From Chloroflexota bacterium (GTDB lineage Bacteria; Chloroflexota; UBA6077; FW602-bin22; JAMCVK01): a stretch of 64,000 nucleotides of DNA. Numbering within the stretch: the stretch's first letter is position 1; the number at the start of each line of letters is the position of its first letter. Location of the stretch: contig JAMCVK010000035.1 of the NCBI GenBank assembly GCA_023475225.1, forward strand, positions 11,212 to 75,211, read 5' to 3'. Shown here in pieces: positions 2,947-21,869 of this stretch. Below the pieces are notes generated by a model. The model worked only from the letters and a program-made list of their open reading frames with translations. It had not been told where the DNA came from and did no database searches. A program made the position numbers and the translations under genes.

Positions 2947-4077
2947 CTATACCGCCTTGAATTTCGGCAGTACCCAACGGTGCCCGGCCAAAAAGGCGAG
3001 TGCAGCCAGCCCCACGATCCACACGGCCAACAACCATTCTGTCAGAGTAGGGAAATATTCGTAAGTCAATCCTGGTCCCGTGTAAGCCAGCCGCAGCGCG
3101 TCGAACTCGGGCACGGTCATTGCCGGAAAGACGATGTTAGAACGCGCCACCGCAAAGCCCAGGAGTATCAACATTCCCGCCCAACCCGCAAGCGCGGGTT
3201 GTCGGCCCCACCGGGGCACCACCAAAATGATCAGTGGAATCAGTGTCCCTAGGCCTATTTGCAGAATCCAGAACGCCCACCAGTAGGGGCCAAAAAGCAC
3301 CATATTGACCGCCGCGACGTTCTCGGGCACACCGCCGTACAGACTCTGTGAATAGTCTGCCCACAGAAAGTAGAGTTTGACGATTTGCAGTGCGATCGTC
3401 GCCAGGGCCAGGATGCCCAGCAGTTGGTCACGCCGTGGTACCGCCTGCTCGTCCACAAGTTCGAGGATAACCAGCATCAACGCCGCGCCGGAGGCGACCG
3501 AGAATACTGGAAACTGAGCAGGGAACAGGCCGACGTGCCAGAACAGCCGGCTGGCTTCAACGCCGAGCAGCGCGCCTACTGCGCCACTCAGGTACAGCGC
3601 GAGCGGGATGCCGAGCCACATCAGCACCTTGAGCCAGCGGTCGAACCCGCCACGCCATCGCAAGACCAGCGCGACGAGGATCAGTAAGCCGAACAGTGTA
3701 TAGCCCCACACGATTTGCGCCATCACTGAGCTGGGGCTGGGGCTCAAGTACACATTCCAGATTCGACTCATCCACCCCAGGTCGAGCCAGATTTGCAGTA
3801 GCCCCGCGCCCAGCGCGACTAACGCAGCGAACAGGGCGGCCGGCGCGACACCGGCGAAGATGCGAATTCCCAACGGAATATCGAGGGCAGCAATCAGGAA
3901 TATCCCCGCTGCCAGCCCGACAAAGAACAGATACATCGCCACCCACAAGCCCCACGGCACGTACGAACCGTAGGCTGTGTTCAGATGTCCAGTCGTCAAA
4001 CGTTGGAACAGCCCGATGCTGCCAACCGCGAATGCGACAACACTGAGTCCCCACAATATCTTAGTATTGATTTTCAT
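2947..4077 (-). CDS. NrfD/PsrC-type polytopic membrane anchor of a molybdoenzyme complex
   Basis: The 376-aa ORF is very hydrophobic with at least 8 predicted helices. It is the last gene of the FeS / Mo-subunit / chaperone operon and overlaps the chaperone gene by 4 bp (4074-4077). Confidence 0.8.
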   Translation of the reverse strand: MKINTKILWGLSVVAFAVGSIGLFQRLTTGHLNTAYGSYVPWGLWVAMYLFFVGLAAGIFLIAALDIPLGIRIFAGVAPAALFAALVALGAGLLQIWLDLGWMSRIWNVYLSPSPSSVMAQIVWGYTLFGLLILVALVLRWRGGFDRWLKVLMWLGIPLALYLSGAVGALLGVEASRLFWHVGLFPAQFPVFSVASGAALMLVILELVDEQAVPRRDQLLGILALATIALQIVKLYFLWADYSQSLYGGVPENVAAVNMVLFGPYWWAFWILQIGLGTLIPLIILVVPRWGRQPALAGWAGMLILLGFAVARSNIVFPAMTVPEFDALRLAYTGPGLTYEYFPTLTEWLLAVWIVGLAALAFLAGHRWVLPKFKAV

Positions 4078-4739
4078 GCTGTAACCTCCGTATCGATAGG
4101 ATGTTTCTGGACCTCCAGAATTTCACGCAACCATGCGGCGTCGGATTCCAGCAATGCGCAGGTCAGGTTAGCCAGGCCGATAAAGAATGGGTGAGCTGTC
4201 GCGGACACGACCGTCGATCCGAACCGTGGCACCCACGTCAAGAGATGTTCGCGCAGAAACGTGGCCGAACCTGCCAGTGCGCGCGGGGATTCGCCGTCAT
4301 GCGCTGCTATCTCGTATGCTAGATACGCCATAAAGCCGAGTTCCAGCGCGAGATGATCCGGCGGAACGCGTCCGTCGTCCCGCGGACGCACATTCCAGGC
4401 GAGATAGGCGCGGCGGGCCGCGAGAGCAGCGGGACCCATCAATTGCCTTTCGTTCAAGTAGAACGAGGCATAGGCGGGCGCAGCGGGTTGCCCAGGCCCT
4501 TCAAACAGCCGTGTTGCCTCGACGTTCAACGTCTCCACAAACATGGCGCGCTCAGGCGCCGCCGCAATGCGCGCTTGCATCACCACGAGCGCGTCGAACA
4601 GCGCAGTGGGCGCGTTCTCGACGCGGAGCGCCATTACCGCATCCAGCGCCGCGCTATCTAACGGGTAGGTATAGAGCCGCGCCAGCAAATCATACATTGC
4701 TGCACGCGCGTGCAGGAAATTCAATTCGCTCATCATCAC
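4074..4739 (-). CDS. TorD/DmsD-family molybdoenzyme maturation chaperone
   Basis: The 221-aa, all-helical-looking ORF has an N-terminus (ARAAMYDLLARLYTYPLD) typical of the TorD/NarJ (nitrate reductase delta) family. It lies between the Mo subunit and the membrane anchor. Confidence 0.7.
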   Translation of the reverse strand: MMMSELNFLHARAAMYDLLARLYTYPLDSAALDAVMALRVENAPTALFDALVVMQARIAAAPERAMFVETLNVEATRLFEGPGQPAAPAYASFYLNERQLMGPAALAARRAYLAWNVRPRDDGRVPPDHLALELGFMAYLAYEIAAHDGESPRALAGSATFLREHLLTWVPRFGSTVVSATAHPFFIGLANLTCALLESDAAWLREILEVQKHPIDTEVTA

Positions 4740-4779
4740 TTCTCAGGTGGGACACACTTGAAGTGCATCACACCTCTGC

Positions 4780-7593
4780 CTATACCTTCTTCACCTTCAC
4801 GAGCATATCCACATAGGCGGGCTGCCCCATAATCGGTGAGAGTGCAGCGGGATCCACCAGGGCATTGTGGTTGATGGTCACATCCTTGAAGTAATAGTTC
4901 TTGCCCAGACCGGGGCTGAATCGCCCACCACTGCCGAATGCCACGCGCAAGGTGCCGGGGCGGATTGTTTCGACCGCGAGGATTTTACCCCGCGCCTTGT
5001 GACCCAACGGCGTCTCTAACTCCACTAAGTCGCCAGTCTTGAGTCCGAGTTTGTCTGCGTCGGCGCGGTTCATTTGAATCACGCCGATGGACCAGGTTCC
5101 CCGGGCCATTTTCACGCGTCGCCCGGTCGGCTTAGGCCCATCTGGGCCAACAAGGATTTCGTCGTATTCGATTTCGTCGTTGAGTGGATACCAGATATCC
5201 TCGACCACAAACCGTCCCAACCAGTCCACCATTTGTGTGCCGGACATCGCGTGGTGGATGCGGCCAGAGATGAGTTGGAACGGATAATCGTTCTTGTACT
5301 TGGTAAAGGCTGGGTTAGTATACGGGTTCCACAACGTCTCAAACCAGTAGAAGGTGCTGGGGTAACGCGTCCAGCCGAGCGCGGCAATGCCGGGTGGCAC
5401 GTTGCCGCTCTCCTCGATCAGTTTGTTGTATTTGGCGTATTGCCCAAAACGCTTCTCGCCTACCTTCCAATCCCACTTGAACTCGATTTTATTGGAACTG
5501 GTCTTAAGGATACCACCGCCTTCGTAGCGATACCACGACATTGGCCAGACCGCAACGCCGTGGTGTTCGCGCAGCCATTTCACCGTCACCGGCTCGCCCT
5601 TAATCTCTTTCTTAGCGTCGTCGATCTTGACGCGCCCTGCTTCCAGGCTGTCCGGAGCGCCGATGAGCTTGTATCCTTTAGGCAAGTTGGGGTAGGGGAG
5701 AGGTGTGCCGATGTTTGGTTTACCCGGCGCGCCCGCGAGCGCTTCGGTCCAGAACTCTTCTTCGCTCTTGTATTTTTCCCAGAAATCGCTTCCCTTGATA
5801 TCCGGGTCGCCCCGGTCCACCAGCGCCTTGGCGAGTAGCAGCATAATGTCGAATGGCGTCTTGGACTCGAACTGCTTCTCGATGACAAAATCGCGCAGCC
5901 AGATCATCGGATGCGAAGGGTACACGTCTGATAGGCTCATCCGCTCGAGATACGACGCTTCGGGGAGCACTACATCGGCGTAAAGTCCGTGTTCGAGGAA
6001 CGGCGTGTCAATGTAGACCGACAGTTCGACTTTGTAGTTGCCCTTGTCGTCTTTCACCGTCAGCGCTTCGGTCCACTTATGCGTATTCGAGCCGGTAATG
6101 ACTGAATTGCCAGTGCGCAGAATGTATGCCTTGATGGGATATTTGTGACCACGGAACGGCCCCTGCTTCAGCGTCACGCCTTCCAGGAAGCGGCGTGGAT
6201 AATCGCCCACCACGTCGTCCCACGCGGCCGGCCAGTCGCCAAGGCCGTCCATGTGCAATTCTTCCTGCTTGCCTTCGACTTCCTTGTCGTTCACTGTACG
6301 CTTGACCTTGCGCGAGAGGAATTGCTTGCCCGTGGCGCTGCCACCCTTGTCCGATTTGACGATCTCGGTGTCAATCCCGCCGCCGGGCGCGTCAAAATTG
6401 CCGGTGATGACATTGAGCGCGGTGCCAAGGATGGAGGCAACGTAACCGTTGTAGTGATGGCCGATCCCGTTCATCCCCCAAACCAGTGCGGCAGGTTTAC
6501 TGATGCCGAAGGTATGCGCGAGTTCGACGATGCGTTCGGCGGGGATGTCGGTGCGCTGGGCCACCCATTCAATGGTAAAGTAGTCCAAGCCGTTGATGGG
6601 GTCTTTTTTGTTCCACCATGCTTTGAACGCGGCGACAAATTCATCCCACCCTTCGCTGTACTCTTTGAACGACCAGTCAATATAGCGGCGGAATGGATCC
6701 TTGGGGTTGTCGTTTTCGAGAATGTAGCGCAGTATAGCAGCGAACAAATCAGCATCCGTGCCCGTGCGAATGGGGATCCACTGGTCGGCCTTGCTGGCGG
6801 TGTTCGACAGCGCAGGGTCAATCACAATGATCTTGGCTCCTGCTGCCTTCGCGCCCACGGTGCCGCGCGATTCGTAATTGATGCGCGTGGCGGTAAAGGG
6901 ATTCCAGCCGGCGTAGATAATCAACTTAGTGCGGTAGGTGTAATCGTTCTTGAGTGTGCCGTCCACCTGCCGCAAGAGAACCGGGCGCATCACGTCTGGC
7001 TCGACGCGCTTGCCGCCAAACATCAACTTGGGTCCGTGGCGACGCGGGGTGTCACAAATTGCGCCATGTTCAGTGCAGTGAGGCGTGCCGAAGGCGAAGA
7101 AAAGACGCCAGTAACAATCGCGGTCGGTCACGTCGCCCGCGTCCATGATGACGGACTCCGGGCCGTACTGCTTCTTGATGGCGGTCAGTTTGTCGGCGAT
7201 ATAGGCGATGGCTTCATCCCAACTAACGCGCTTGAATTTGCCTTCGCCGCGTTCGCCGACGCGGATCATCGGATACTTAATGCGATTGGGGTTGTACACC
7301 ATTTGCAAACCGGCTGCGCCTTTGGCACATACTGTGCCGGCATTATACGGCACGTAAGGGTTGCCGTAGATTGCAGAGGCGACGCCGTTGACCACGTTGA
7401 CCGCGAGGCCACATTCGGCGGGACACATCACATCGGCAGTGTATCTCACTTGGGGCGTTTCCGCCAAGAGGCGCGCCGCTTCTGTGCTGCTCAGGCGTTC
7501 AAACAACCCCACGCCAGTCACTGCGCCTGCCGCCAGGCCACTGATTTTTAGAAAATCACGTCGCGAAATTTTTTTATTATTCATTGTTGTCAC
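4780..7593 (-). CDS. molybdopterin (bis-MGD) oxidoreductase catalytic subunit, Psr/Phs/Ttr/Arr-like, Tat-exported, substrate unknown
   Basis: The 937-aa ORF has the twin-arginine motif SRRDFLKISGLAAGA. The N-terminal FeS motif reads D-x2-C-x3-C-x27-C. A candidate Mo-ligand Cys lies in HGAICDTPRRHG, and the protein has a C-terminal molydopterin-binding beta-barrel-like tail. Confidence 0.9.
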   Translation of the reverse strand: MTTMNNKKISRRDFLKISGLAAGAVTGVGLFERLSSTEAARLLAETPQVRYTADVMCPAECGLAVNVVNGVASAIYGNPYVPYNAGTVCAKGAAGLQMVYNPNRIKYPMIRVGERGEGKFKRVSWDEAIAYIADKLTAIKKQYGPESVIMDAGDVTDRDCYWRLFFAFGTPHCTEHGAICDTPRRHGPKLMFGGKRVEPDVMRPVLLRQVDGTLKNDYTYRTKLIIYAGWNPFTATRINYESRGTVGAKAAGAKIIVIDPALSNTASKADQWIPIRTGTDADLFAAILRYILENDNPKDPFRRYIDWSFKEYSEGWDEFVAAFKAWWNKKDPINGLDYFTIEWVAQRTDIPAERIVELAHTFGISKPAALVWGMNGIGHHYNGYVASILGTALNVITGNFDAPGGGIDTEIVKSDKGGSATGKQFLSRKVKRTVNDKEVEGKQEELHMDGLGDWPAAWDDVVGDYPRRFLEGVTLKQGPFRGHKYPIKAYILRTGNSVITGSNTHKWTEALTVKDDKGNYKVELSVYIDTPFLEHGLYADVVLPEASYLERMSLSDVYPSHPMIWLRDFVIEKQFESKTPFDIMLLLAKALVDRGDPDIKGSDFWEKYKSEEEFWTEALAGAPGKPNIGTPLPYPNLPKGYKLIGAPDSLEAGRVKIDDAKKEIKGEPVTVKWLREHHGVAVWPMSWYRYEGGGILKTSSNKIEFKWDWKVGEKRFGQYAKYNKLIEESGNVPPGIAALGWTRYPSTFYWFETLWNPYTNPAFTKYKNDYPFQLISGRIHHAMSGTQMVDWLGRFVVEDIWYPLNDEIEYDEILVGPDGPKPTGRRVKMARGTWSIGVIQMNRADADKLGLKTGDLVELETPLGHKARGKILAVETIRPGTLRVAFGSGGRFSPGLGKNYYFKDVTINHNALVDPAALSPIMGQPAYVDMLVKVKKV

Positions 7594-7596
7594 CTG

Positions 7597-8505
7597 CTAT
7601 ACCAGATAGTACAACTTGGGTTCCGTGCCGAGTTCCTCTTTCAGACGCATCACGTTCGGCTGGCCGATAAGACTGCTCACCAAACTCTGCGCGTCGTTAG
7701 CATCGCCAAAGAACGTGGCACGCCCCATACAACTCAGAACACACGCCGGTAACTCGCCGCGCTCGATGCGGTGAATGCAGAAATGGCACTTGCGAGCGTT
7801 GCCAACTGGTGAGGCATGGCGCGTACGCACCCGCGGGGTTTTGTACTCTTGTGCGGCGACCTTTTCGTAGGGTTGGGGATCGCCCCCTTCAAAGTCACTG
7901 TAGAAATAGCCAGCGTCGAAGGTGCGCGCGCTGTACGGGCACGCGGTCAAGCAGTACCGGCAGCCGATGCAGCGCTCATAGTCGATCACGATGATACCGT
8001 CCACCCGTTTATAGGTCGCATTGACGGGGCATACATCAGTGCAGGGTGGGTTCTTGCACTGCATACAGGGACGGGGAATAAAACGGCGTGAGACGTTAGG
8101 ATAGGTTCCGCGGGTTTCAGTCATCACAGGGCGATACACGATGCCAGGCGGGAGTTTGTTTTCCGTCACACACGCGATCGCACAGCCTTGGCAGCCAACG
8201 CATTTCCGCAAGTCAATTGCCATAGACCAGCGGCGTTGATTGACCGGCTTGAGCAGCGCGCGGCGCAAGTCCTGCATCATGCGCAAAATCGGATCTTCAC
8301 CTGCGACGGCTGGCGGCAGATCAGGCAGTGGCACGAGGTCTGGTGCTTGGGCAGGGGGCTTGGCTTGAACCGGCGTCACACCACCGAGCACTGCCGGCGC
8401 GACCAAGCCCGCGAAAACACCACTGGCGAATTTGACCAGAAAATCACGCCGTGGCTCCTCCGTGTCCAGCGTCCCAAGGGCAGTCGTCTCCGGGATGTTC
8501 GTCAT
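7597..8505 (-). CDS. 4x[4Fe-4S] ferredoxin-type electron-transfer subunit with its own Tat signal
   Basis: Four Cys clusters are present: [37 protein letters not shown] and CHFC...CVLSC. The N-terminus carries RRDFLVKF followed by an h-region and AxA (VQAKP). Confidence 0.9.
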
Positions 8506-8649
8506 TTGCTCCTCCTTTCGATAATATGGAGCAATGGAATGGATCTAGAAATCTTCCTCTGAATACGCTACTGGAGATAGGCAGCGAAAACAACTGGGAA
8601 AAACCAGGGGAAGTGGACTAGGGATTTCCCTAGTTGTTACGGCGTTGAG

Positions 8650-8784
8650 GGTGCCGCTTCAACCGTTGCGCATCACTTACGTATGCTGGAAGAGGTGGAG
8701 CTAATCACGGCCTGGCAAGAAGGGAAGTTTATCCTGCATGTGTTCAACGTGGATTTGGTAACGAGGCACTGCGTGTTCAGATAA
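8650..8784 (+). pseudogene. ArsR/SmtB-family HTH regulator remnant (C-terminal part only)
   Basis: The frame containing 8641..8784 translates to GVEGAASTVAHHLRMLEEVELITAWQEGKFILHVFNVDL. This matches the recognition helix and wing of ArsR-family proteins (S-TVSHHL-xL--AGLV---R-G). No matching N-terminal half is present, and there is an in-frame stop at 8578. Confidence 0.45.
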
Positions 8785-8794
8785 CCAAGTCCGG

Positions 8795-9439
8795 TCAAGG
8801 GATCAACCCGCGCTGCACCGCATAGCGGATGAGATCGGCCCGGGTGGCGAAGCCCAGTTTGCGTAGAATGTTCGCGCGATGAAAATCCACAGTCTTGACG
8901 CTGATGAATAAGGCTTCGGCGATTTGCTGGTACGTCTGGCCCTGCGCAAGAAGCACCAGCACTTCACGTTCGCGGTCTGAAAGGGTCTCGTACGGATCAG
9001 CTGGGCTGGCGCCACGGCGGACGTCGTCGACGACGATGCCGGCGACAGAGGGATCCAGAAACATTCCGCCGGCATGAACGACGCGGATCGCGTTCAGCAA
9101 TTCGTCCCCCTCGGCACGTTTAAGGACGTAGCCGGACGCGCCGACGCGCAAGGCGGGGAGAATGTATTCCTTGTTCTCGTGTTGGGTCAGAATGAGGACA
9201 CGGGTGTGCGGACTGGTCTCGCAGATCTGCCGCGTCGCCGCGAGTCCGTCTAACCTCGGCATACCAATATCCATCAGCACGACATCAGGCTGGAGTTCGC
9301 GCGCTCGCGCCAGCGTTTGCAGTCCATCGCCTGCCTCACCCACCACCTGCATATCGGGCTGCATTTCCAAAAGGGCGCGGATCCCCGCGCGCAAGACGGC
9401 GTGATCGTCAGCAAGCAGAATTTTGATTTTGTTCGGCAT
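8795..9439 (-). CDS. NarL/LuxR-family response regulator
   Basis: The receiver domain has ILLADDH...VLMDIGMP and the C-terminus has a LuxR HTH ([36 protein letters not shown]). The start is set at ATG 9439 (MPNKIKILL), 2 nt after the kinase stop. The longer ORF to 9508 would overlap the kinase. Confidence 0.9.
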
Positions 9440-9441
9440 AT

Positions 9442-11331
9442 CTATCTTTTCACCAGGATCTCCACGTGCACCCGTGTGCCTTGCCCTACACGGCTCTCGA
9501 CGCCCCACCGTCCGCCGAGCAACTCGGCGCGCTCGCGCATTCCCAGCAAACCTAGGCCGCGCTCGCTCTCGCCCTGCACCGCGAAAACTTGAGTGACTTC
9601 AAACCCGATTCCATCATCCGCGATTTCTAGCCTGACGCCTTCCGGCCCCAAGTCCAGGACGATGTGAACGTGGCGCGCACTAGCGTGTTTGATCACATTA
9701 GTCAGCGCTTCTTGTGCGATGCGAAACAGCGCAGTCTCGATGTCTGCGGGCAAGCGCCGTTCGGGACCGCGCAGGTCGAACGTGACGGCAATTCCGTTTG
9801 CCTGGATACGACTTTCGGCAAACCAGCGCAGTGCGGGAATCAACCCCAAATCGTCCAGGACGCTCGGACGCAAGTCGTAGATGGTGGTCTGCAATTCACG
9901 GACGCTGTCTGCGGCCGCGCTTCTCAAGCGCGCAACCACCTCGCCCGCTCGTGCCGCGTCCCTTTCCAGTATGGCTTCGGCGGTTTTCAATCCGAACACG
10001 AGCGCATTGAGCGATTGCCCGGTTTGATCGTGCAGTTCCCGCGCGATGCGTTTCCGTTCTTCTTCCTGAGCGCGAATGACTTTGGCAAGCAACTCGGCCC
10101 GTACGCGTTCTTTAGCTTCGAGCTCCTCCCACAGCTGCGCATTCTCCAACGCAACCCCCATCTGGCGTCCCACGGCTTCCAGCAGCAGCATTTCTTCTTC
10201 GCCAATCTGCTCTGGGTCTGCGCTTGCGACACTCAACACTCCCAGAATTTTTCCTTTGGCCCTTACGGGCACGGTGGCGTGACAGCGCAGTGGCTGACCG
10301 TCTAGCCCCACACCCCCTTGCGCCGCGCATTTCTCTCCCAAGCTCTGAATCATCATCGGCTCGCCATGGCGCAGCACCTGACCACACAGACAATCGGGAA
10401 AGCCGCCGGGTAGGGCGTGGTGCGTGACTGGCGCCGGTAATCCTACGCACGTCACCAGACGCGGCGGGCCACCATTGGTCAAAAAGACCCAACCAGTGGA
10501 GAGTTCCAACGCGGCGAGTGACTGTGTCAAGGCGCGTTCCAGGGCTTGTTGCACATCCAGCGGGCCACTCGTGGCAGTCGCCACCGCGTTTAGCGCGGCC
10601 AGTTCGCGGTTGCGGCGGCGCATCGCGGTAATTGTCGTATGCAGGTCGCGTGCCATCTGGTTGAATGCGCGCGCCAGATCACCGATTTCGTCACGCCGCG
10701 CCGTGTCTATCGTTTTGTCCAAGTGTCCTTGCCCCAAACGCAAGGCGTGCGCGGTCAAGCCTTCCAGCGGACGTGTGATGCGGCGTCCCAGCCCCAACGC
10801 CGCGACGCTGCCGACGAGAACGCCGAGGAACGTCAAGCCGGCAATGATCAGCGTCACCTGATTGACCAAGCGGACAATCTCTTGCTCGCTAAACCCAAGA
10901 TGTAGCTCCGCATCAAGTCCATCGAGTATGCGCCATGCCACATCGCGCACTGGACCACGTTCGGTATCCAGCAGGCGCAGGCTGGCGCGTTGGTCGAAGG
11001 GCAAGCGGTTAGCGGTCAACAGGTCGGCTGGGAAACCAGTGGGCAAAGTGTGAATCACTCGCGTTTCGCTGGGGTAGATGACGTAGGCAAATATAAGATT
11101 CGGATTGTTAGCAGTGAGATCATCCAACGTATTTTGCACGACAAACCAATTGCCGTCGAGGAGTGCATTCGCCACACTCTCCCCCGTCACCTGGGCAAGC
11201 GAGAGACCTTTATCGCTGGACTCGCGACGCAGCGCGTTCTGCACGACGGTGTGGATGGAGATCATCGTCAAAAGTCCCATCACTACGATAATCGCGGTTG
11301 TGGTCAAAATGATGCGCGTGCTGAATTTCAT
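9442..11331 (-). CDS. sensor histidine kinase (TM - periplasmic domain - TM - HAMP - GAF - HisKA_3 - HATPase)
   Basis: The H-box is [12 protein letters not shown] (NarX/HisKA_3 type). Also present are an N-box ([10 protein letters not shown]), G-boxes ([17 protein letters not shown]) and a HAMP segment (RPLEGL...[10 protein letters not shown]). The start is set at ATG 11331 (MKFSTRIIL), which overlaps the upstream stop by 4 bp (ATGA). Confidence 0.9.
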
Positions 11332-12278
11332 TTGAGTAGCCCAAACCGCTCGGACCATACTTGTAGTTCCGCGTAGTCGCTGTGCTGCGCGCCGATAAAC
11401 CCGCGCGGCATTTCTGTGCGCTCCCAATGATACAACCCCGCGCTGTCTTTGCCTAGTGGATCAAACGCTAACAACGCCCGGCGTACCGCATCCACGATAT
11501 GGGGGTCAACACCTGGGCCAACCATGATGCCGCTCGATGGATAGTCCATTGAGAGCATGAATATCCGCACCAGGCCACGGTTCGCTAGACTCAACGCGAG
11601 GGTATCCTGCATGCCGCCCGCATCATAGCGTCCACTGATGACCGCGTTCGCGACTCCCACGTGCGAGCCTGTGTACTCGTAAGCAGCCAGGTCGCCCAGT
11701 TGAATGCCAGCCTGATCAAGCAGGATGCGCGGGATCAAATGCCCTTGCGTGGAATTTGCCGCGCCGAACGCAAAAGTTCGCCCGCGCAAATTGGCCAGCG
11801 TTTGAATCGGACTGGTAGGACGCGTGATAATCGCGGCACGATACACGCCACGTCCGTCGGCATTGAGACCGCGCACCAGTGGCTGCGCGCCGTATCGAGT
11901 ATGCGCTTGCAGATAACTTAGGGTACCGACGATGGCGAATTGAATTGTCCCGCGTCCCAGGTCGTCCACGACGTTACCTTCTTTGGGTGTTGGGTGCAAT
12001 TTGAAGCGATAGGTAGTCGTACGTTCGAGATAACGCAGGAGCGGGATGTACATTTTCACATCCTCTTTCGGCTCCAAACGCCGGTCAAAACCGATGTAAA
12101 GCGTGCCATCACCGATCGAACGCAGGCGCGCCAAATCGTTCGCGTCTGCCGCGCGCGCCAGGTTAACCTGGGTGGACGACTCGCGGATGTCACACCCTGC
12201 CAGGCCAAGGGCTATCGCAATAACACTAAGCCACAAAACGATTCGCGTTAAGATACTCCACCCCATTTCAAGTATCAT
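11328..12278 (-). CDS. PhnD-fold (phosphonate/oxyanion-binding type) periplasmic binding lipoprotein
   Basis: The signal peptide ends in a lipobox (LGLAGC). The motif FAFGAANSTQGHLIPR resembles the PhnD-family anion-binding loop. No ABC permease or ATPase gene is adjacent. The gene is translationally coupled to the kinase. Confidence 0.8.
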   Translation of the reverse strand: MILEMGWSILTRIVLWLSVIAIALGLAGCDIRESSTQVNLARAADANDLARLRSIGDGTLYIGFDRRLEPKEDVKMYIPLLRYLERTTTYRFKLHPTPKEGNVVDDLGRGTIQFAIVGTLSYLQAHTRYGAQPLVRGLNADGRGVYRAAIITRPTSPIQTLANLRGRTFAFGAANSTQGHLIPRILLDQAGIQLGDLAAYEYTGSHVGVANAVISGRYDAGGMQDTLALSLANRGLVRIFMLSMDYPSSGIMVGPGVDPHIVDAVRRALLAFDPLGKDSAGLYHWERTEMPRGFIGAQHSDYAELQVWSERFGLLK

Positions 12279-12281
12279 CCT

Positions 12282-13913
12282 CTAGGCCAAACCCAGTAAG
12301 CGGGACCGCAAAGCTCGCCAGAAGAGCCTGGCCTCTTCGACACGTAATAACCAGATCGCTACAAGGTAGGTTAGGACCCCCATGGCGATCGCTAACACAA
12401 CGTACTCTATCTGTCCCCCAATCGTTTGGGGGTTAGCTAGCCTGCCTAAAGCCGGAGCAAGCGGGTAGTACACCACAGGCATGCACAGGGCAGCCAGACC
12501 TGATTTAAGCACTGTGCTGGTCAACCCATACCCCTTAAGCCCAGCGACGATGCGCCAGAGCAAGGCGAAGAGCACCACCGCGTGCAGCGAGTTTTGGAGT
12601 GTATTAGCTAGAACTAGCCCAGGCATGCCCAGGGGACCGATGAGGCTGAGTCCAGCAACTAAGTATACAATGACACCCAGCAGACCGACGAGCATCGGTG
12701 TAAGAGTATTCTTACGGGCATAGAAGGCGAAGATAAGTAATTGATCGATGGCTACAAAAGGCAATTGCGGGGCATAGCAGAGGAAGGCGAGGGCTGTTAG
12801 TCGTGTCCCCTCCGCGTTGAAGGCCCCATGTTCGAACAGGAGGCGGATGAGAGGCAAACGCAGCATGACTAAACCGATGGTAGCCGGCAGAATGGCCAGA
12901 AGAGCCAGCTTCATTCCAAAGACAAGCGTCTCCTTGTAAGAGTCCAAGGACGAATCGCCGGTACTATTCTGACTGATTAGCGCCTCCCGACGTTCAGTTA
13001 CGATGATCCCGTTCACGGACATTTGCGCCGCTGTGCTGAAGCGTGACAGAGTAGGCAAGATGGCGAAGGCGGTGGCTGTCGCCACCAACCCAAGAGGGAA
13101 TTGAACTAACGTCGTCGCAAAGCGCATCACGGCCATACTTTCCTCGCCTGTGCGGGAAGCGAGGTTGCGGTCAATGATTACCCCGATTTGGGAAATTATT
13201 AAACCAAGGGCCACGGGCCCATACAGGCTGACTATCCTCTTCACCCCAGGATGACGCAGGTTAAGAGAAAAGGAAAAACGAAACCCCCGCAGTCCGGGCA
13301 ATTGGAGGATGATTTGCAGGATCGCTCCAGCCAATACACCAATGGCTAAGGCTGCTATACCAAACATGGGGGCAAGAGCAACAGCCAAAACGATGACGCC
13401 GAGGTTGAATGCGGCGACACAAAAGGCGGGATAAATAAACATCTGCCGCGCATAAAGGATAGCCGTGGTCACGCCCGATAGACCAAGAAAGATCACGGAG
13501 GGTAAGACGATACGGATCAGGCGGAGTGCTTCTGCTTGTGTTGCTTGATCTAGCCCGATGGCCAAGAGCCAAACCAATTGGGGAGCTAGAACGATCATGC
13601 TCACTGTAGCTATCCCCAGGATGAGTAGGGCGAAGTTCAGGATGATGCTGGCCACACGCCAGAGCTCATCCTTATCCTCCTGCTCAGCATAATCGCTGAA
13701 AACGGGGATGAGGGCCGCACTGATAGCTCCACCGATCAGCAGGTCATAGATCATGGTTGGCACAGTCAAAGCAGCCACAAAGGCAGAAGTAAGGCCGCTT
13801 GCGCCGAAGAGGATAGCGATAACCTGCTCCCGCACCAGGCCGAGGATTCGGCTAACCACATTGCCGAACATTATCAGCCCAGCGGCCGTAACAATCCTCC
13901 TCTTGGTTGTCAT
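12282..13913 (-). CDS. murJ: lipid II flippase MurJ/MviN
   Basis: The 543-aa polytopic ORF has an N-terminus (GNVVSRILGLVREQVIAILFGAS) characteristic of MurJ. Confidence 0.85.
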   Translation of the reverse strand: MTTKRRIVTAAGLIMFGNVVSRILGLVREQVIAILFGASGLTSAFVAALTVPTMIYDLLIGGAISAALIPVFSDYAEQEDKDELWRVASIILNFALLILGIATVSMIVLAPQLVWLLAIGLDQATQAEALRLIRIVLPSVIFLGLSGVTTAILYARQMFIYPAFCVAAFNLGVIVLAVALAPMFGIAALAIGVLAGAILQIILQLPGLRGFRFSFSLNLRHPGVKRIVSLYGPVALGLIISQIGVIIDRNLASRTGEESMAVMRFATTLVQFPLGLVATATAFAILPTLSRFSTAAQMSVNGIIVTERREALISQNSTGDSSLDSYKETLVFGMKLALLAILPATIGLVMLRLPLIRLLFEHGAFNAEGTRLTALAFLCYAPQLPFVAIDQLLIFAFYARKNTLTPMLVGLLGVIVYLVAGLSLIGPLGMPGLVLANTLQNSLHAVVLFALLWRIVAGLKGYGLTSTVLKSGLAALCMPVVYYPLAPALGRLANPQTIGGQIEYVVLAIAMGVLTYLVAIWLLRVEEARLFWRALRSRLLGLA

Positions 13914-13915
13914 AA

Positions 13916-15151
13916 TTATAGAGCTATCCTCTCCACTATCCCCTGCTCGACTCGAAAAAGAGCAGCTTGATCCAGGAACTCCGGGGTGAAATGGTGCAAA
14001 TCGGTGGTGGTGATGATCACCTGTTGCTCGGGGCCGATGATGGCTAAAACATGATTTCTTCTCGCCTCATCCAGCTCTGACATCACATCGTCCAGCAGCA
14101 AAATCGGCTCTTCATCAGTCATACTGCGCATAAAGCGGGTCTCAGCTAATTTCAGCGATAAGGCTATCGTGCGTTGCTGTCCTCGTGAGCCATAGATGTT
14201 CATGTCCCTCTCGTTGACCAGGAAGACAAGATCATCGCGATGTGGTCCCAAGAGGGACAATCCGTAGGCGATCTCCTTTGTTTGTAAAGAGTCTAGCTGC
14301 TGCTTGAATGCCTCACGTAGTCGGCCTAGATCCTCGCCCAGGTCACTATCACTGTTTGAATCGACCATCCCCCGCGACTGAATCTCATCTCCAGACCATT
14401 CCAGGCTGGACCGATATTGTATGCTCAGACTCTCGCCATCAGCCAGCTGTCGATGAATGGTATGAGCTAAGGAATTCAGACTAGCCACGGCGGCCAACCG
14501 CTGCCAGATCAGGTATGACCCGGCGTTTACCAATTCCTGATCCCAAAAGAGCAATTGCTCTGGTCGGCCATGACGCTCGCGAATCTGCCGGAGAAGATAA
14601 TTGCGTTGTAATAAGACCTTACTATAGTGAGCCAAGGTTCGAACGTAGCGTGGGTCAACCTGCGAGATGGTCACATCGAGATATCTGCGCCGCATATGTG
14701 GTGCACCCTGAATAAGATCAATATCCTGTGGTGAGAACATAACCACATTGACCTCCCCAATGATGTCAATGGCGCGCTTGGTCACATTATTAACTTTTAT
14801 GCGTTTGACGGTTGTTCTGAGCGGAGATATCAGCGCCGGGCCCAGGCCTGGTTCCTCCCTGGGAACTTCCTCTTTAATGAGAATCTCTATATTTAACACG
14901 ATATGTCCTCGTCGTACACGGGCAATGAGGCGAGCGAAAGCAGTCCCTTCGGTATTGGCCAACCAGTTAACCAGCTCTCGATCTGAACCGGCTCGGAATG
15001 ACTTTGTCGTGGCCAGGAAGTAGATCGCCTCCAAGAGATTGCTTTTCCCTTGAGCATTGCCCCCCAGCACGACTGTAACACGTGGTGGCAGCTCCAGATC
15101 TAAACGCGCATAGTTTCGAAAGTTGGTCAGCGAAAGATAGTTACAATACAC
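13916..15151 (-). CDS. recF: DNA replication/repair protein RecF
   Basis: Present are Walker A (GGNAQGKSNLLEA), an ABC-like signature (GSRGQQRTIALSLKLAE) and Walker B (ILLLDDVMSELD). Confidence 0.9.
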   Translation of the reverse strand: MYCNYLSLTNFRNYARLDLELPPRVTVVLGGNAQGKSNLLEAIYFLATTKSFRAGSDRELVNWLANTEGTAFARLIARVRRGHIVLNIEILIKEEVPREEPGLGPALISPLRTTVKRIKVNNVTKRAIDIIGEVNVVMFSPQDIDLIQGAPHMRRRYLDVTISQVDPRYVRTLAHYSKVLLQRNYLLRQIRERHGRPEQLLFWDQELVNAGSYLIWQRLAAVASLNSLAHTIHRQLADGESLSIQYRSSLEWSGDEIQSRGMVDSNSDSDLGEDLGRLREAFKQQLDSLQTKEIAYGLSLLGPHRDDLVFLVNERDMNIYGSRGQQRTIALSLKLAETRFMRSMTDEEPILLLDDVMSELDEARRNHVLAIIGPEQQVIITTTDLHHFTPEFLDQAALFRVEQGIVERIAL

Positions 15152-15408
15152 TTAAGGTGACTCAATCTTACAGCGTGTAGGAAAACCGAAATGTACCTTC
15201 CTTGGCCAAGCAAACACTGTAGCGATTATAACAATCACCCAGGGGGAGGGCAAGGAAAAGAGAGGCCCGAGGTTTAGGTCTAGCGACTAAGTTTCGGGTA
15301 CGGTTGTCGCTGGAGTGCTCCTGTGTTATATTGTGGTAGCCCCGCTGTAACTTCTGCAGAGATTTCACTCGAAGTTAAGATGATAAATGGTCTTTCGGGG
15401 AAAATAGA

Positions 15409-16425
15409 GTGAGCGAGAAGGTTACTGTAATCGTCGTCAACTGGAATGGAAGGGATTATCTCGAGACATGCCTCTCTTCAGTGTTAAGACAAAGCTACCC
15501 CAACTTTGAGATACTTCTTATCGATAATGCCTCAACCGATGGCTCGCTGGATCTGATAGAAGAGAGATTTCCTCAGGTGGGGGTGATCAGAAACAGGGTG
15601 AACTTAGGTTTTGCAGCGGCCAATAACATTGGTATCCAGCAAAGCAGTAGTGATTACATAGCTACGTTAAACAATGACACGAAAGCCGAGGAGACCTGGC
15701 TGGCAGAGCTGGTCAAAGCTGCCAGAACAGGTCCCGATATTGGCATGTGCGCCTCCAAGATGCTTTTTATGCACCAGCCGGCGATCATCAACTCGGCTGG
15801 CATCGCCCTGGACCGGGCAGGTATCGCCTGGGATAATCGTGGTGGAGAAGAGGATACACCGGACGATAGCAAGCCATATGAGGTGTTTGGTCCTTGCGCC
15901 GGGGCCGCCCTTTATCGCCGCGAGATGCTGATGGGGATCGGCTTATTTGACGAAGATTTCTTCGCCTACCTTGAGGATGTCGATCTGGCTTGGCGGGCGC
16001 GCCTGGCCGGCTGGCGCTGCCTGTATGTCCCGACCGCCAAAGTCTACCACATCCATTCAGCCACAGCCCGCGAAGGATCATCGTTGAAGACTTACCTATT
16101 AGGACGCAATAAGATTTGGACGATAATTAAGAACTATCCCTCACCTCATTTTTGGCTTTTCTGGCCAATTATCGTGGGTTACGATTTTGGTTCCGTGCTT
16201 TTTGCCTTGTTCTCCCGAAGAGATATTCGCCCTTTACAGGGCAGGTTGTCTGCTCTGACTCGCTTTGCTCCTATGTGGCGGAAGCGGAGAGTGGTGCAGC
16301 GGAATAGAAAAATATCCCCCACAGCAATGTGGCATTTGATGTATCCTCTGGAAAGGCCAGACAGGGTATTCAAGAGATATGGTCACCTTCGAGGCTATGA
16401 GAAACCGGAAGGGGACGGCCGGTGA
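15409..16425 (+). CDS. family 2 glycosyltransferase
   Basis: The N-terminus is VIVVNWNG, followed by IDNASTDGS and DxD-like LEDVDL, which is rhamnosyltransferase-like GT2 architecture. It uses a GTG start. Confidence 0.8.
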   Translation: MSEKVTVIVVNWNGRDYLETCLSSVLRQSYPNFEILLIDNASTDGSLDLIEERFPQVGVIRNRVNLGFAAANNIGIQQSSSDYIATLNNDTKAEETWLAELVKAARTGPDIGMCASKMLFMHQPAIINSAGIALDRAGIAWDNRGGEEDTPDDSKPYEVFGPCAGAALYRREMLMGIGLFDEDFFAYLEDVDLAWRARLAGWRCLYVPTAKVYHIHSATAREGSSLKTYLLGRNKIWTIIKNYPSPHFWLFWPIIVGYDFGSVLFALFSRRDIRPLQGRLSALTRFAPMWRKRRVVQRNRKISPTAMWHLMYPLERPDRVFKRYGHLRGYEKPEGDGR

Positions 16426-18935
16426 AGCGTATCACCGTCAGGGCTCTGCTCATACTACTACCTTTACTCTTACTTACGATCACCAGTTGTATTAGTATGA
16501 CTGACAATAAACAAGGTAGCGCGGCGCGTCCTGTCGGAGAAATCTATGGTTCGCAGCAAGTTGGACAGAGTTTCGTTTCTCATTACGCCGGTCTTAGCCA
16601 TATTGACGTTCTTTTAGCCACTTACGCCAGACAGAATACCGAGGAGGTCTCCTTCCACCTCAAACATAAGCCCTCTGACCCCAAAGATCTGATCACCATC
16701 ACGGTTAACGCCTCGGCTATCCAAGACAACGCCTTCCACTCCTTCGGTTTCCCTCCTCAGCCTGATTCGGCTGGTAAGTCCTATTTCTTCTATTTAAAGT
16801 CACTTCGTTCGAGACCAGGGGATGCTATCACCGTTTGGTACGACCCAGTGGATGTTTATGGCGAGGGCAGTCGTTACCTGAACGGTGAGCCGACCAGCGG
16901 TGATCTGGCCTTCGCCACTTACTACGAATATAGCCCTATGAGGGCCCTGGCCGACGTTTGGCATGGTCTGAGTGATAACTGGGAGCTATCTTTATCGGCT
17001 TTCCTCCTTTTCGTTCTGCCTGGTTATGCCCTCCTTTCTTTATTGTCTTTGTACCAGAGGGATATTATTGAGCGATTTATCATCTCAATAGGACTAAGTG
17101 TGGCCCTTATCCCCCTGCTATTGTTTATGGCCACGATGGCTGGGGCGAAGCTGAACAAAGATTGGCTCCTGGGGCTTATAGCTGCGAGCACGATCGTGGT
17201 TGCCGGACATCATCTAGCGAACCTGCGGCTACGGCCAAAACCTACCTCGGCCACGAGGGGGATGGCCCTCGAATCCGAGATGAGCATAGAAAGCAACAAG
17301 GCCCACGAGCTCCCCTCAATGTCCAGGGAAGAACTGATCATATCTTATTCAGTTTTGGGGGTCATTTTTCTGGTCTCTATGGTTGTTAGATTGCTTGTCG
17401 TGCGCCATCTTATGACCCCCATGTGGGGAGATTCATATCATCACACCATGATCGCCCGTCTCATTGTTGACAAAGGCAGCGTGCCAGACTCTTATTTACC
17501 GTATGCCCCGTTGTTCTCGTTTACCTATCATTTCGGCTTTCACGCTGTAGTAGCTTTCTTCCACTGGCTCAGTGACCGGCCCCTAACTGAGATGGTGATT
17601 CTGGTAGGGCAAATTCTGAATGGATTTGCGGTGTTGGGATCTTATCTACTTGCGGTCAAGCTGACGGGAGACAAGCGTGCTGGTCTGGTAGCCGCATTGA
17701 TCACTGGAACAATTTCATTGATGCCGGCGTACTACGTGAACTGGGGGCGCTACCCGCAGCTGGCAGGACAGGTGATCCTCCCCTTTGCCCTTGTGAGTGT
17801 GATGGAGGCTGTCGAGTGGCCAGGGCGAGACTGGCGTCGTTTAGGTTTGGCTGCCGTTTTTCTAGCTGGTTTGACCCTTACTCATTATCGCGTGCTTCTG
17901 TTCTCGGTGGCCTTTATTTGGCTTTATTTGCTCTGGGTGACGTGGATCCGCCGAAGGCGGATGAAGGATAAGCGCTCTCTCTGCGAACCGTGGATCAGGG
18001 GGATGATCATGGCCATAGCAGCTATCGTGCTTGTGGCTCCCTGGTTGGCGAATATTCTGATTAATTTTCTGCCGAAGTTCGTCTCCTCCCTGGCGATAGC
18101 GGCTAAGACAAGTCCAGCCTTCTTGGCCGAGTATAATGCCATCGGCGATCTCTGGTTTTTCGTTAGTCCCTATCTGCTTTGTCTAGCTATCGTTGGCGCT
18201 CTGCTGTCCATTTTCCTCAGACAAAGTAGGGTTATCCTAATCATCCTCTGGGTTATCCTTCTTTTTCTTATGGCTAATCCGGGTTACTTGAGATTGCCAG
18301 GCACAGGGGCGATAAACAACTTCACTATCCTCATCGCCCTATACTTGCCAATTTCCATCCTCATCGGCTTCCTCGCCGGTCGGGCTATAGAGGCCATCAC
18401 TATCCGTCTACCGCGCCTTCGGCACCTGTTGGCTCTCGCTCTGATCATCGTTGCGCTCCTAGGGGCTAAGAATATGCTTAGTCTTCTCGATCCGAGCTAT
18501 GCCCTGGTACTGGGTCCAGATGAGAAGGCGATGGAATGGATCAGGAGTAACACTCCAGTAAAGGCGAAATTTTTAGTAAATTCCTTCTTCGCCCGTGGTG
18601 GGGCAGTAGTGGTGGGTTCCGATGCTGGATGGTGGATTCCCTTACTGGCTGATAGGCAGAACACAGTGCCCCCTGATCGGTATACTGCAGAAAAGAAGGA
18701 GAGTCGCCATGAGTCCCAAGTAGCCGCCTTGGCTAAAGCGACAGAGGGCCCTTTAGATTCCGCTGATTCCCTGAGCCTTTTCCAGAGACAAGGTATAACG
18801 CATGTTTATATCGGCGCACGTGGGGGAATCATTAAGCCAGAGGAGTTGCTTAGCAGCCCACATTATCGTTTAATCTACCACGATGACGGCGTTTGGATCT
18901 TTAAGATAGAGTACGGGACGAAAGTGGACAAATGA
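16422..18935 (+). CDS. large polytopic membrane protein, GT-C-like glycosyltransferase candidate
   Basis: The 837-aa ORF has an N-terminal signal/anchor, then a soluble domain of about 170 aa, then at least 13 hydrophobic helices, then a soluble C-terminal domain of about 190 aa. The loop motif MWGDSYHH follows an early helix. The start overlaps the upstream stop by 4 bp. Confidence 0.55.
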   Translation: MKRITVRALLILLPLLLLTITSCISMTDNKQGSAARPVGEIYGSQQVGQSFVSHYAGLSHIDVLLATYARQNTEEVSFHLKHKPSDPKDLITITVNASAIQDNAFHSFGFPPQPDSAGKSYFFYLKSLRSRPGDAITVWYDPVDVYGEGSRYLNGEPTSGDLAFATYYEYSPMRALADVWHGLSDNWELSLSAFLLFVLPGYALLSLLSLYQRDIIERFIISIGLSVALIPLLLFMATMAGAKLNKDWLLGLIAASTIVVAGHHLANLRLRPKPTSATRGMALESEMSIESNKAHELPSMSREELIISYSVLGVIFLVSMVVRLLVVRHLMTPMWGDSYHHTMIARLIVDKGSVPDSYLPYAPLFSFTYHFGFHAVVAFFHWLSDRPLTEMVILVGQILNGFAVLGSYLLAVKLTGDKRAGLVAALITGTISLMPAYYVNWGRYPQLAGQVILPFALVSVMEAVEWPGRDWRRLGLAAVFLAGLTLTHYRVLLFSVAFIWLYLLWVTWIRRRRMKDKRSLCEPWIRGMIMAIAAIVLVAPWLANILINFLPKFVSSLAIAAKTSPAFLAEYNAIGDLWFFVSPYLLCLAIVGALLSIFLRQSRVILIILWVILLFLMANPGYLRLPGTGAINNFTILIALYLPISILIGFLAGRAIEAITIRLPRLRHLLALALIIVALLGAKNMLSLLDPSYALVLGPDEKAMEWIRSNTPVKAKFLVNSFFARGGAVVVGSDAGWWIPLLADRQNTVPPDRYTAEKKESRHESQVAALAKATEGPLDSADSLSLFQRQGITHVYIGARGGIIKPEELLSSPHYRLIYHDDGVWIFKIEYGTKVDK

Positions 18936-20029
18936 TTCTTTTTATTACACGCAAATATCCACCATCGGTGGGAGGAATGCAAGAACTGAGCTATCACTTG
19001 ACCACTGAGATAGGGAAGGTTCGCCAGAGCAAGGTCATCGCCTGGGGGGGATCCCAGCTCTTCTTACCCCCCTTCCTAATTTATGCTCTGGCCAGGAGCA
19101 TTCCCCCCCTGCTGAATAGGAGGATAACTCTTCTCCATCTGGGCGATGTTATACTGGCACCGTTAGGATTGATCCTCAAGCGCATGTTCAGGGTACCAGT
19201 GGTAGCTAACGTGCACGGACTGGACCTTGTCTACCCTCATCCCCTCTACCAAACACTCATGCCCTATTTCTTAACCCGACTGGACAAGTTGGTCTGTATC
19301 AGCCATCATACCAAAAATGAATGCCTCAAACGCGGCATCCCTGATGAGCAGTGTGTGGTCATCCCTGTTGGGGTGGACATCAACGAATTCGCTATGTCTA
19401 AGGAAACGGCTAGACGGACAGTGGAGAGAATCATCAGACGGCCATTAAAAGGGGTAAAGGTGTTGCTCACCGTAGGAAGGTTGGTCAAACGAAAGGGGAT
19501 AAGCCACTTTGTGACGCATATCTTGCCTGGCATAGTAGCCAGACGGATGGATGTAATCTACCTTATAGCTGGTGAGGGGCCGGAACAGGCCCAAATAATT
19601 AAGGAAATCGATACGCATAACCTGCATTCGCATGTTTTCCTGCTGGGGAAGGTAGATGAGTGTACGCTGCCTGCCTTGTATGCGGCGGCCGATCTCTTTG
19701 TTATGCCGAATATATCCATCGCTGGTGATACCGAGGGCTTTGGTATCGTGGCCTTGGAGGCTTGCGCGGCCGGCTTAGGCGTGGTAGCTTCCAGGTTGGA
19801 GGGCATTCAGGAAGTTATCGAACCTGGCAAAAATGGCCTCCTGTTAGACCCGACCGACATAGCTGGCTATGTGGACACTATCCTGAATCTCCTGGCAGAT
19901 GACGCTGGTTGCCAACACTTGGGGCTAAAGGCAAGAGCATACGTAGAACGGCGATTCAACTGGCCTGGCATTGCCGAGCAATATTTGCAGGTCTTTGACG
20001 AAATCAGGAACAAGAATAATGGCCGCTGA
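18932..20029 (+). CDS. family 4 (GT-B, GT1-type) glycosyltransferase
   Basis: The C-terminal motif is EGFGIVALEACAAGLGVVAS...G.NGLLL (E-x7-E type). Confidence 0.8.
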   Translation: MILFITRKYPPSVGGMQELSYHLTTEIGKVRQSKVIAWGGSQLFLPPFLIYALARSIPPLLNRRITLLHLGDVILAPLGLILKRMFRVPVVANVHGLDLVYPHPLYQTLMPYFLTRLDKLVCISHHTKNECLKRGIPDEQCVVIPVGVDINEFAMSKETARRTVERIIRRPLKGVKVLLTVGRLVKRKGISHFVTHILPGIVARRMDVIYLIAGEGPEQAQIIKEIDTHNLHSHVFLLGKVDECTLPALYAAADLFVMPNISIAGDTEGFGIVALEACAAGLGVVASRLEGIQEVIEPGKNGLLLDPTDIAGYVDTILNLLADDAGCQHLGLKARAYVERRFNWPGIAEQYLQVFDEIRNKNNGR

Positions 20030-21847: not shown

Positions 21848-21869
21848 TCTCTTAGGATGAGATGCAGAG

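Follow-up and report, generated by a model that had tools for sequence, protein, structure and literature searches.

A probable antimonate reductase operon with a three-component sensor in a Chloroflexota-like bacterium

Contig JAMCVK010000035.1 of a Chloroflexota bacterium carries, at positions 2947-12278 of the 64-kb stretch analyzed here (the window), a cluster of seven co-directional genes for a three-component sensor and a molybdenum (Mo) enzyme exported by the twin-arginine translocation (Tat) pathway. The cluster is best read as a member of the already described anr cluster type, not as an orphan system. Judged by its sequence, it is probably an antimonate respiratory reductase operon, anrXSR-BAD with an NrfD anchor, representing a new Chloroflexota-type anr cluster. 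The observations behind this reading are the gene content, the membership of the proteins in their family by sequence, the linkage of sensor and enzyme genes, and a conserved box upstream of the enzyme genes. From these we infer which substrate the enzyme reduces, what the sensor binds, which way electrons flow, and that the regulator binds to the box.

The cluster and its protein family

The features of the cluster are as follows.

11328-12278, minus strand: anrX-like PhnD-fold binding lipoprotein (Pfam Phosphonate-bd), sensor partner; alternative start at 12266
9442-11331, minus strand: anrS-like sensor histidine kinase (transmembrane segment, 134-residue outer domain, transmembrane segment, HAMP, GAF, HisKA_3, HATPase_c)
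8795-9439, minus strand: anrR-like NarL/LuxR-family response regulator (Pfam Response_reg and GerE)
8506-8794, minus strand: 289-bp intergenic region, presumed regulated promoter of the enzyme operon; the sole sizeable gap within the cluster
8618-8633, no strand assigned: 7-2-7 palindrome CTAGGGA-AA-TCCCTAG, candidate operator for the NarL-type regulator
7597-8505, minus strand: anrB-like four-cluster ferredoxin, the iron-sulfur (FeS) subunit (Pfam 4Fe-4S dicluster/Fer4 domains), with its own Tat signal
4780-7593, minus strand: anrA-like bis-MGD (two molybdopterin guanine dinucleotides) Mo catalytic subunit, predicted to be Tat-exported (Pfam TAT_signal, Molybdop_Fe4S4, Molybdopterin, Molydop_binding)
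4074-4739, minus strand: anrD-like TorD/DmsD-family Tat-proofreading chaperone (Nitrate_red_del, E 8.5e-25)
2947-4077, minus strand: NrfD/PsrC-type integral membrane quinol-interacting anchor (NrfD, E 2.9e-25)

All seven open reading frames that the original prediction had listed are present on the minus strand, with the Pfam domains as named. The DNA also displays directly the ATGA overlap that had been described between the binding-protein and kinase genes and the 2 nt between the kinase stop and the regulator start; the chaperone and NrfD genes are likewise joined by an ATGA overlap. The order is thus X-S-R-B-A-D followed by NrfD, that is, the full six-gene anr set with B ahead of A.

Relatives of the Mo subunit at 60-89% identity fall into more than 120 protein clusters, none specifically named, from Chloroflexota, Rokubacteria, Nitrospirota, Bacillota, Proteobacteria, Acidobacteriota, Marinimicrobia, and archaeal bins. 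For comparison, loci were taken from species-representative genomes and by exact-protein look-ups, homologues of the window proteins were placed in every locus by tblastn, and re-fetched contigs were removed before counting. The most distant homologue matches, L032 and L033, have fragmented genes and were excluded. The 94 distinct family members, from about ten phyla, form one tight clade with pairwise identities of 54-98% (median 63%). One sister paralogue is 47-55% identical to the family, whereas ArrA-like proteins encoded in the same loci do not exceed 30%. The habitats and carriers include hot-spring Thermoflexus, groundwater Nitrospirota, Rokubacteria, Rhodospirillales of oxygen-deficient marine waters, and some archaeal bins.

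Desulfuribacillus stibiiarsenatis is a known antimonate respirer, and the clade includes its protein OEH84960.1, which was found in a search with the Desulfitobacterium hafniense protein and is 59% identical to the Mo subunit of the window. The D. stibiiarsenatis locus (L147) consists of genes for a small dihaem cytochrome, an FeS subunit, the Mo subunit (942 residues), a TorD-like chaperone, and a 362-residue FeS-rich protein, followed by the sensor genes for a Phosphonate-bd protein, a GAF-HisKA_3 kinase, and a NarL regulator. Identity to the corresponding window proteins is 44% for the binding protein, 32% for the kinase (full length, collinear), 50% for the regulator, 38% for the FeS subunit, and 31% for the chaperone. 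The two clusters share the same six protein types, identical active-site signatures, and a NarL-type regulator. They differ in that the X-S-R genes are downstream of the enzyme genes in D. stibiiarsenatis but upstream in the window, and in that D. stibiiarsenatis has the dihaem cytochrome and the 362-residue protein, whereas the window has a 10-helix NrfD membrane link. In addition, the FeS subunit of the window is 110 residues longer and has its own Tat signal, and the host is Chloroflexota-like.

In 2019, Abin and Hollibaugh reportedly gave the name anrA to a strongly antimonate-induced gene of the DMSO-reductase family in D. stibiiarsenatis. In Geobacter sp. SVR, AnrA is said to have been found by Kambara et al. 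in 2024 through activity staining and mass spectrometry, with an operon anrXSRBAD. The letters reported for that operon correspond one for one to the window cluster.

The family can also be reached through primers. The quantitative PCR (qPCR) primers Desul-anrAF/R, printed in the supplement of PMC13284237, match the family members L087 and L115 with three mismatches each, at convergent sites 234 bp apart inside the Mo gene, and L075 and L111 with four mismatches each. By estimate, the chance expectation of such a match is of the order of 1e-6. On the window gene the primers map to 4870-5106 with at least eight mismatches each and would not anneal. The original prediction had taken the substrate to be unreadable from the sequence, a claim that is now superseded, because the clade holds the D. 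stibiiarsenatis homologue and is the target of published anrA primers. It had also named nesting of the catalytic subunit in a characterized clade as counter-evidence; in part the subunit does nest in one, namely the clade with the D. stibiiarsenatis homologue.

The enzyme and its probable substrate

The FeS subunit has RRDFL at residue 19, a hydrophobic stretch at 22-40, and 16 Cys; its best NCBIfam matches (DsrO, TtrB, and ArrB) are all below cut-off. In the Mo subunit (937 residues), the twin-arginine motif SRRDFLK together with the Pfam TAT_signal domain agrees with the Tat export that had been predicted for the molybdoenzyme. The Mo subunit is under every NCBIfam equivalog cut-off, scoring 249 bits on PhsA (cut-off 694, with only the N-terminal 590 residues aligned), 160 bits on ArrA (cut-off 1600), and 80 bits on TtrA (cut-off 1750). 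The TorD/DmsD matches of the chaperone are also below cut-off, and the NrfD protein has about ten hydrophobic segments in 376 residues. By sequence, the best solved relatives of the Mo subunit are PsrA (2e-38) and ArrA (2e-35). An AlphaFold model was of medium quality (mean pLDDT, the predicted local distance difference test, 73; under 50 in the active-site loop 174-201). Its nearest solved fold is that of ArrA (6cz7, E 5.6e-36), followed by PsrA (2vpw), at 18-20% identity.

Alignment with ArrA pairs its Mo ligand Cys193 with Cys180 of the Mo subunit, His189 with His176, and Lys198 with Arg185. Arg165/Tyr166 of ArrA align with Asp154/Val155, and Ser190 with Gly177. Two stretches, MD-x-GDVTDRD-x-Y (150-161) and EHG[AS]ICD[TV]PRRHGPK (175-189), are essentially invariant in the 91 family members that cover them, including that of D. 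stibiiarsenatis. The acidic, hydroxyl-accepting GDVTDRD stretch would suit octahedral Sb(OH)6- better than tetrahedral arsenate. In the FS0 motif, D-x2-C-x3-C-x27-C, Asp stands at the first Cys position (residue 54); this position is Asp in 58 of the 91 members and Cys in 32, and the cluster may be Asp-ligated or have three cysteines.

On these data, and in line with the earlier view, the enzyme belongs to none of ArrA, ArxA, Psr, Phs, and Ttr, since it is below the NCBIfam cut-offs and has D154/V155 for R165/Y166 of ArrA; neither the (R/K)GRY nor the GRGWG motif, said before to be missing, is present in the catalytic subunit. Among candidate identities, ArrA, Phs/Psr, Ttr, and Dms were ruled out by the cut-offs. 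Nao was ruled out as well, since it has a Rieske subunit and is NapA-like.

The ArrAB/ArrXSR system (Shewanella ANA-3, 6cz7; ArrX of Chrysiogenes arsenatis, 6x6b) resembles the window cluster in its fold, the closest solved one, in the Tat-exported Mo subunit and aligned Cys ligand, and in a PhnD-fold sensor that feeds a two-component system, often with ars genes near. However, ArrA is 18-26% identical to the Mo subunit of the window, the arsenate-binding R165/Y166/S190 are replaced, the Arr order is A-B-D and not B-A-D, and the binding protein of the window is without the Cys that marks AioX, ArxX, and ArrX.

Links to arsenic are also seen in the neighborhood of the family. The flanks of 20 of the 94 loci have ars genes (Acr3, ArsR, ArsC, ArsM-like) or an ArrA-like operon, and these include the loci of D. 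hafniense, Neomoorella humiferrea, and Desulfosporosinus. The orthologous cluster of D. hafniense DCB-2 is flanked on one side by an ArsR/ArsM-like pair and on the other by ArsC-ArsR-Acr3, and ArsP lies farther along. In the genome paper of D. hafniense, Dhaf_1206-1209 were called putative phsABC plus chaperone on a BLAST match alone, and they adjoin arsC (Dhaf_1210) and the arsenite-pump gene Dhaf_1212 (PMC3306737); from the matching layout, Dhaf_1206-1209 would be the orthologous cluster. In N. humiferrea the cluster comes after ArsR-Acr3. In a Thermodesulfovibrionales contig, a family member adjoins a full-length ArrA-like gene, for which the ArrA model gives 1083 bits. The presence of a distinct ArrA-like gene next to a family member, as in L016 and L023, argues for a substrate other than arsenate.

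Two further observations concern these neighborhoods. The Thermodesulfovibrionales loci L023/L050 have, at 3370-16760, three molybdoenzyme operons in tandem with a sigma-54 regulator gene upstream: FeS-paralogue (49% identical to the window protein)-chaperone, FeS-family member-chaperone, and ArrA-like-FeS-chaperone. Genes with a link to sulfur or selenium trafficking lie a few kb from the cluster in D. hafniense (L034, 1865-2347 and 20151-21601) and in D. stibiiarsenatis (L147, 18242-21251). C_GCAxxG_C_C, a Se/S-carrier (PF11823), and an aminotransferase resembling cysteine desulfurases are encoded in both loci, and L147 also has rhodanese and DsrE.

The arsenic context could mean that the enzyme acts on an arsenic species, be it a thioarsenate, a methylated arsenical, or arsenate itself, in which case it would be a second reductase independent of ArrA, and that the binding protein senses the same species. 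This would fit the ars and arr genes in the flanks, the predicted fold nearest to ArrA, and the arsenate sensor ArrX being the closest sensor-type solved relative of the binding protein (1e-14). It fits less well with the replacement of ArrA R165/Y166 and S190 by D154/V155 and G177, with the ArrA score a long way under its cut-off, and with Gly in 56 of 57 binding-protein homologues in place of the Cys that marks AioX, ArxX, and ArrX. Moreover, true ArrA-like genes coexist in the same loci or genomes, pointing to a different substrate, and the primers that match the family were published as anrA. We therefore regard an arsenic substrate as unlikely.

Several points weigh against the antimonate reading. 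The chief one is that OEH84960.1 is presumed to be AnrA (BHU72_07145) on the strength of the primer match and of the organism that it comes from. Geobacter sp. SVR did not appear in the homologue lists, in two genome scans, or in a search with a deltaproteobacterial query; the same scans missed D. hafniense and N. humiferrea, both of which carry the gene, so that absence from the scans is uninformative. There are no ars genes in the window. The sub-clade of the window is unlike the Firmicute and Nitrospirota members in its longer Tat-FeS subunit (35-42% identity), terminal 10-helix NrfD, and FS0 Asp. Finally, automatic annotations as well as the D. hafniense genome paper (PMC3306737) name the orthologue a thiosulfate/polysulfide reductase.

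The last point raises the question of whether the enzyme is a reductase of a sulfur compound (thiosulfate, polysulfide, or tetrathionate). PsrABC/PhsABC (2vpw) has the same combination of a Mo subunit, a four-cluster ferredoxin, and an NrfD-type quinol anchor, and PhsA and PsrA are the best NCBIfam and Protein Data Bank (PDB) sequence matches; some members are labelled thiosulfate/polysulfide reductase by the JGI (Joint Genome Institute). In addition, some members have the FeS-NrfD-Mo order of ttrBCA with NarL output like TtrR, and rhodanese, DsrE, and Se/S-carrier genes are near two Firmicute loci. However, the PhsA and TtrA scores (249 bits vs 694; 80 vs 1750) and the ~20% identity to PsrA speak against a sulfur substrate, and the window protein is ~170 residues longer than Psr/Phs and comes with a dedicated X-S-R sensor. 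Sulfur chemistry would leave the enrichment of ars and arr genes around the family unexplained, and the D. hafniense assignment came from a BLAST match only. A sulfur-compound reductase thus appears highly improbable.

The family also varies in its architecture. In the Chloroflexota loci, including the window, the Tat-FeS subunit has 300 residues and the 376-residue NrfD gene follows the chaperone gene. In Bacillota, a Lentimicrobiaceae bin, one Deltaproteobacteria bin, and two archaeal bins, the FeS subunit is short and an NrfD of ~300 residues is between FeS and Mo. Acidobacteriota and Symbiobacteriaceae have the FeS-NrfD-Mo order with the long window-type FeS and a window-type NrfD. In Nitrospirota and Desulfobulbales the NrfD gene is absent from the cluster, and in D. 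stibiiarsenatis the small cytochrome takes its place.

It is conceivable that in members from Chloroflexota, Rokubacteria, Acidobacteria, and Rhodospirillales the enzyme works as an oxidase, with Sb(III) or As(III) as electron donor and the quinone pool as acceptor, in the way that Arx differs from Arr. These members stand apart in the tree and in their subunits (long Tat-FeS, terminal NrfD, FS0 Asp), their carriers are not known as strict anaerobes (Thermoflexus, Rokubacteria, Rhodospirillales of oxygen-deficient waters), and the direction of the reaction does not reveal itself in sequence. Yet the active-site signatures are identical family-wide, the D. stibiiarsenatis member included, the sub-clades are still 59-65% identical to each other, and the operator box is common to Desulfosporosinus, a strict anaerobe. 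Oxidative function is, in our estimate, quite improbable. Somewhat more room is left for a broader alternative, which we hold to be a minor but real possibility. The sub-clade (Chloroflexota, Rokubacteria, Acidobacteriota, Symbiobacteriaceae, and Rhodospirillales of oxygen-deficient waters) could have shifted in function, to that of an Sb(III)/As(III) oxidase, for instance, or of a reductase acting on another hydroxylated metalloid oxyanion, or the whole family could have been mis-equated with AnrA, in which case it would be a widespread orphan metalloid-linked molybdoenzyme with a three-component sensor.

The sensor and the promoter of the enzyme operon

In 60 of the 94 distinct loci, and in 37 of the 50 with at least 5 kb of sequence on both sides, the FeS-Mo-chaperone genes have a gene for a PhnD-type binding protein next to them. 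This adjacency of sensor and enzyme is more than chance. The original prediction that the binding protein is a sensor partner and not a transport component is borne out as well: no ABC permease or ATPase is within 5 kb of the window cluster, and of 59 distinct binding-protein genes only three are within 4 kb of a homologue of any ABC ATPase or permease. The tie between the triad and the molybdoenzyme is kept across phyla and is accompanied, in the NarL-type loci only, by the palindromic box upstream of the FeS gene, so that the proposed sensor-enzyme unit is strongly supported.

The output of the sensor is of two types. In 30 loci it is of the NarL type (HisKA_3 kinase plus NarL regulator), the carriers being Thermoflexus, Anaerolineae, Caldilinea, Desulfitobacterium, Desulfosporosinus, Gracilibacter, Symbiobacteriaceae, and Eggerthellaceae. 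In 29 loci it is of the NtrC type (sigma-54 regulator), in Nitrospirota, Desulfobulbales, Thermodesulfobacteriota, and Rokubacteria. In TtrSR/TtrBCA, the similarities to the window are a PhnD-fold sensor module, NarL/LuxR output, and an FeS-first operon, but the binding module of TtrS is fused to the kinase, whereas that of the window is a separate lipoprotein, and the similarity of the Mo subunit to TtrA is negligible. In AioXSR and ArxXSR, the binding protein is a protein of its own, apart from the kinase and the regulator, and all three are next to the molybdoenzyme that they control (PMC5908839). Their sigma-54 NtrC-type regulator is also found in half of the present family (Nitrospirota, Desulfobulbales, Rokubacteria), while the window uses the NarL type. 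The locus had been described as a mix of two designs, which is half right: within one family, the same binding protein feeds either a NarL or a sigma-54 NtrC regulator, depending on the lineage.

One triad is rearranged. In N. humiferrea (L036, CP136419.1, 3062-8208) the kinase gene is split, with the HAMP part followed by an insertion sequence (DDE_Tnp_1), and the HisKA_3/HATPase part lies in reverse orientation together with the regulator gene, with a second copy of the insertion sequence after them. The arrangement looks like an inversion mediated by the insertion sequence, which probably inactivates the sensor.

The PhnD fold of the binding protein, proposed earlier, is confirmed by Pfam Phosphonate-bd (PF12974; E 8.5e-54, 182.9 bits vs a gathering score of 27). 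In NCBIfam, the protein does not reach the cut-offs of PhnD and TIGR01098, which are equivalogs for transport. Its lipobox is LAGC, with Cys29 kept in 53 of 57 homologues, and its start is possibly the second ATG (12266), which is better placed relative to GAGG. The closest solved relatives by sequence are PtxB (9e-21) and then ArrX; AioX gave no sequence match at E 0.001. Invariant in the binding-protein family are G118, Y146, S176-T177-Q178-G179, S205-H206, Q224-D225, and E289-M290. AioX, ArxX, and ArrX have a common pocket of Tyr88, Cys106, Tyr131, Ser161, Ser163, His192, and Asp210 (PMC5908839). The binding protein of the window retains Tyr131, Ser161, His192, and Asp210, but Cys106 of AioX is replaced by Gly118, and Ser163 by Gln178 inside the invariant STQG (Gln in 56 of 57 homologues). 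Glu100, at the position of AioX Tyr88, was considered as a special residue and dropped, since the position is variable (Tyr in 29 of 57 homologues). By its pocket replacements and sequence matches, the binding protein shares the fold and sensor logic of the AioX/ArxX/ArrX group but does not belong to it.

The kinase has hydrophobic segments at 8-26 and 161-179 around its 134-residue outer domain and an H-box, HDQTGQ, at residue 434. With HisKA_3, HATPase_c, Response_reg, and GerE domains by Pfam, the kinase and the regulator qualify as a two-component system of the NarL/FixJ type.

The 289-bp gap between the regulator and FeS genes has a GC content of 49%, compared to 57-61% in the flanking genes, and holds the palindrome. 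The latter is a perfect 7-2-7 repeat located 113-128 nt upstream of the FeS start codon, and it is the single match in the window, where 0.15 would be expected. A relaxed form of the box, CTRGKRA-NN-TYMCYAG, is found exactly once in each of 19 further NarL-type loci, always upstream of the FeS gene; these loci include repeats of the same contig and come from Thermoflexus, Anaerolineae, and Desulfosporosinus. It has no other occurrence in 2.4 Mb of locus DNA and is absent from every NtrC-type locus. In the NtrC-type loci, a -24/-12 sigma-54 element is present at the equivalent place in at least six of 17. That the promoter elements track the type of regulator is the strongest evidence for control of the adjacent operon by the triad, and the palindrome is a candidate operator to which the NarL-type regulator would bind.

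If the cluster functions as an anr system, the events could be as follows. The lipoprotein AnrX would bind an antimony species outside the cell and dock on the kinase AnrS, at its outer domain of 134 residues; AnrS would then phosphorylate the NarL-type regulator AnrR. A dimer of AnrR would bind the palindrome at 8618-8633 and turn on the enzyme operon. The chaperone AnrD would keep apo-AnrA until the cofactor is inserted, and the Tat pathway would export AnrA together with the four-cluster ferredoxin AnrB. The NrfD subunit would take electrons from menaquinol and pass them through AnrB to the Mo center (ligand Cys180), where antimonate, Sb(V), would be reduced to Sb(III).

Genomic surroundings and significance

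The neighbors of the cluster are genes for an MFS transporter, pyrF, murJ, recF, and glycosyltransferases. Only 3 nt (12279-12281) separate the murJ stop from the binding-protein start, which leaves the X-S-R genes without an intergenic promoter of their own; they are probably read through from recF-murJ or from a promoter within murJ. A generic scan for promoters and terminators gave background levels and nothing usable. The GC content of the cluster (2947-12278) is 58.1%, compared to 52.4% in the rest of the window, and GC at third codon positions is 62-72% in the cluster vs 55-62% in the flanking housekeeping genes. The raised GC and the cross-phylum identity suggest that the cluster was gained horizontally, between pyrF and murJ-recF.

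The window DNA is present at 100% in sequencing runs labelled mine tailings metagenome, a setting that counts in favor of a metalloid substrate. The Dxs protein of the host has its best matches in Chloroflexia bins, at 57-60% identity; this low identity indicates a Chloroflexota-like lineage without a close representative. No tRNA genes were found in the window. Elsewhere in it, on the plus strand, 15409-23791 has genes for GT2/GT4 glycosyltransferases, a DUF6541 membrane protein, and methyltransferases, divergent from recF, which look like a cluster for cell-envelope polysaccharide. At 26224-30177, also on the plus strand, a 1317-residue RHS-repeat protein (RHS_repeat, DUF6443) is encoded beside a HemN-like radical SAM gene, and a long antisense open reading frame (27025-28650) is within the RHS-repeat gene.

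To our knowledge, the enzyme of antimonate respiration received its name only in 2019-2024, and two cultured bacteria are known to have it. The enzyme family described here is highly conserved over about ten phyla, usually with its own binding-protein sensor. Since the published anrA qPCR primers would miss the Chloroflexota variant of the window, surveys of mine sites may undercount the gene. New handles on the system are the candidate operator at 8618-8633, a single binding-protein family that is plugged into either NarL or sigma-54 outputs, and an invariant acidic active-site stretch at the place of the arsenate-binding Arg-Tyr of ArrA.

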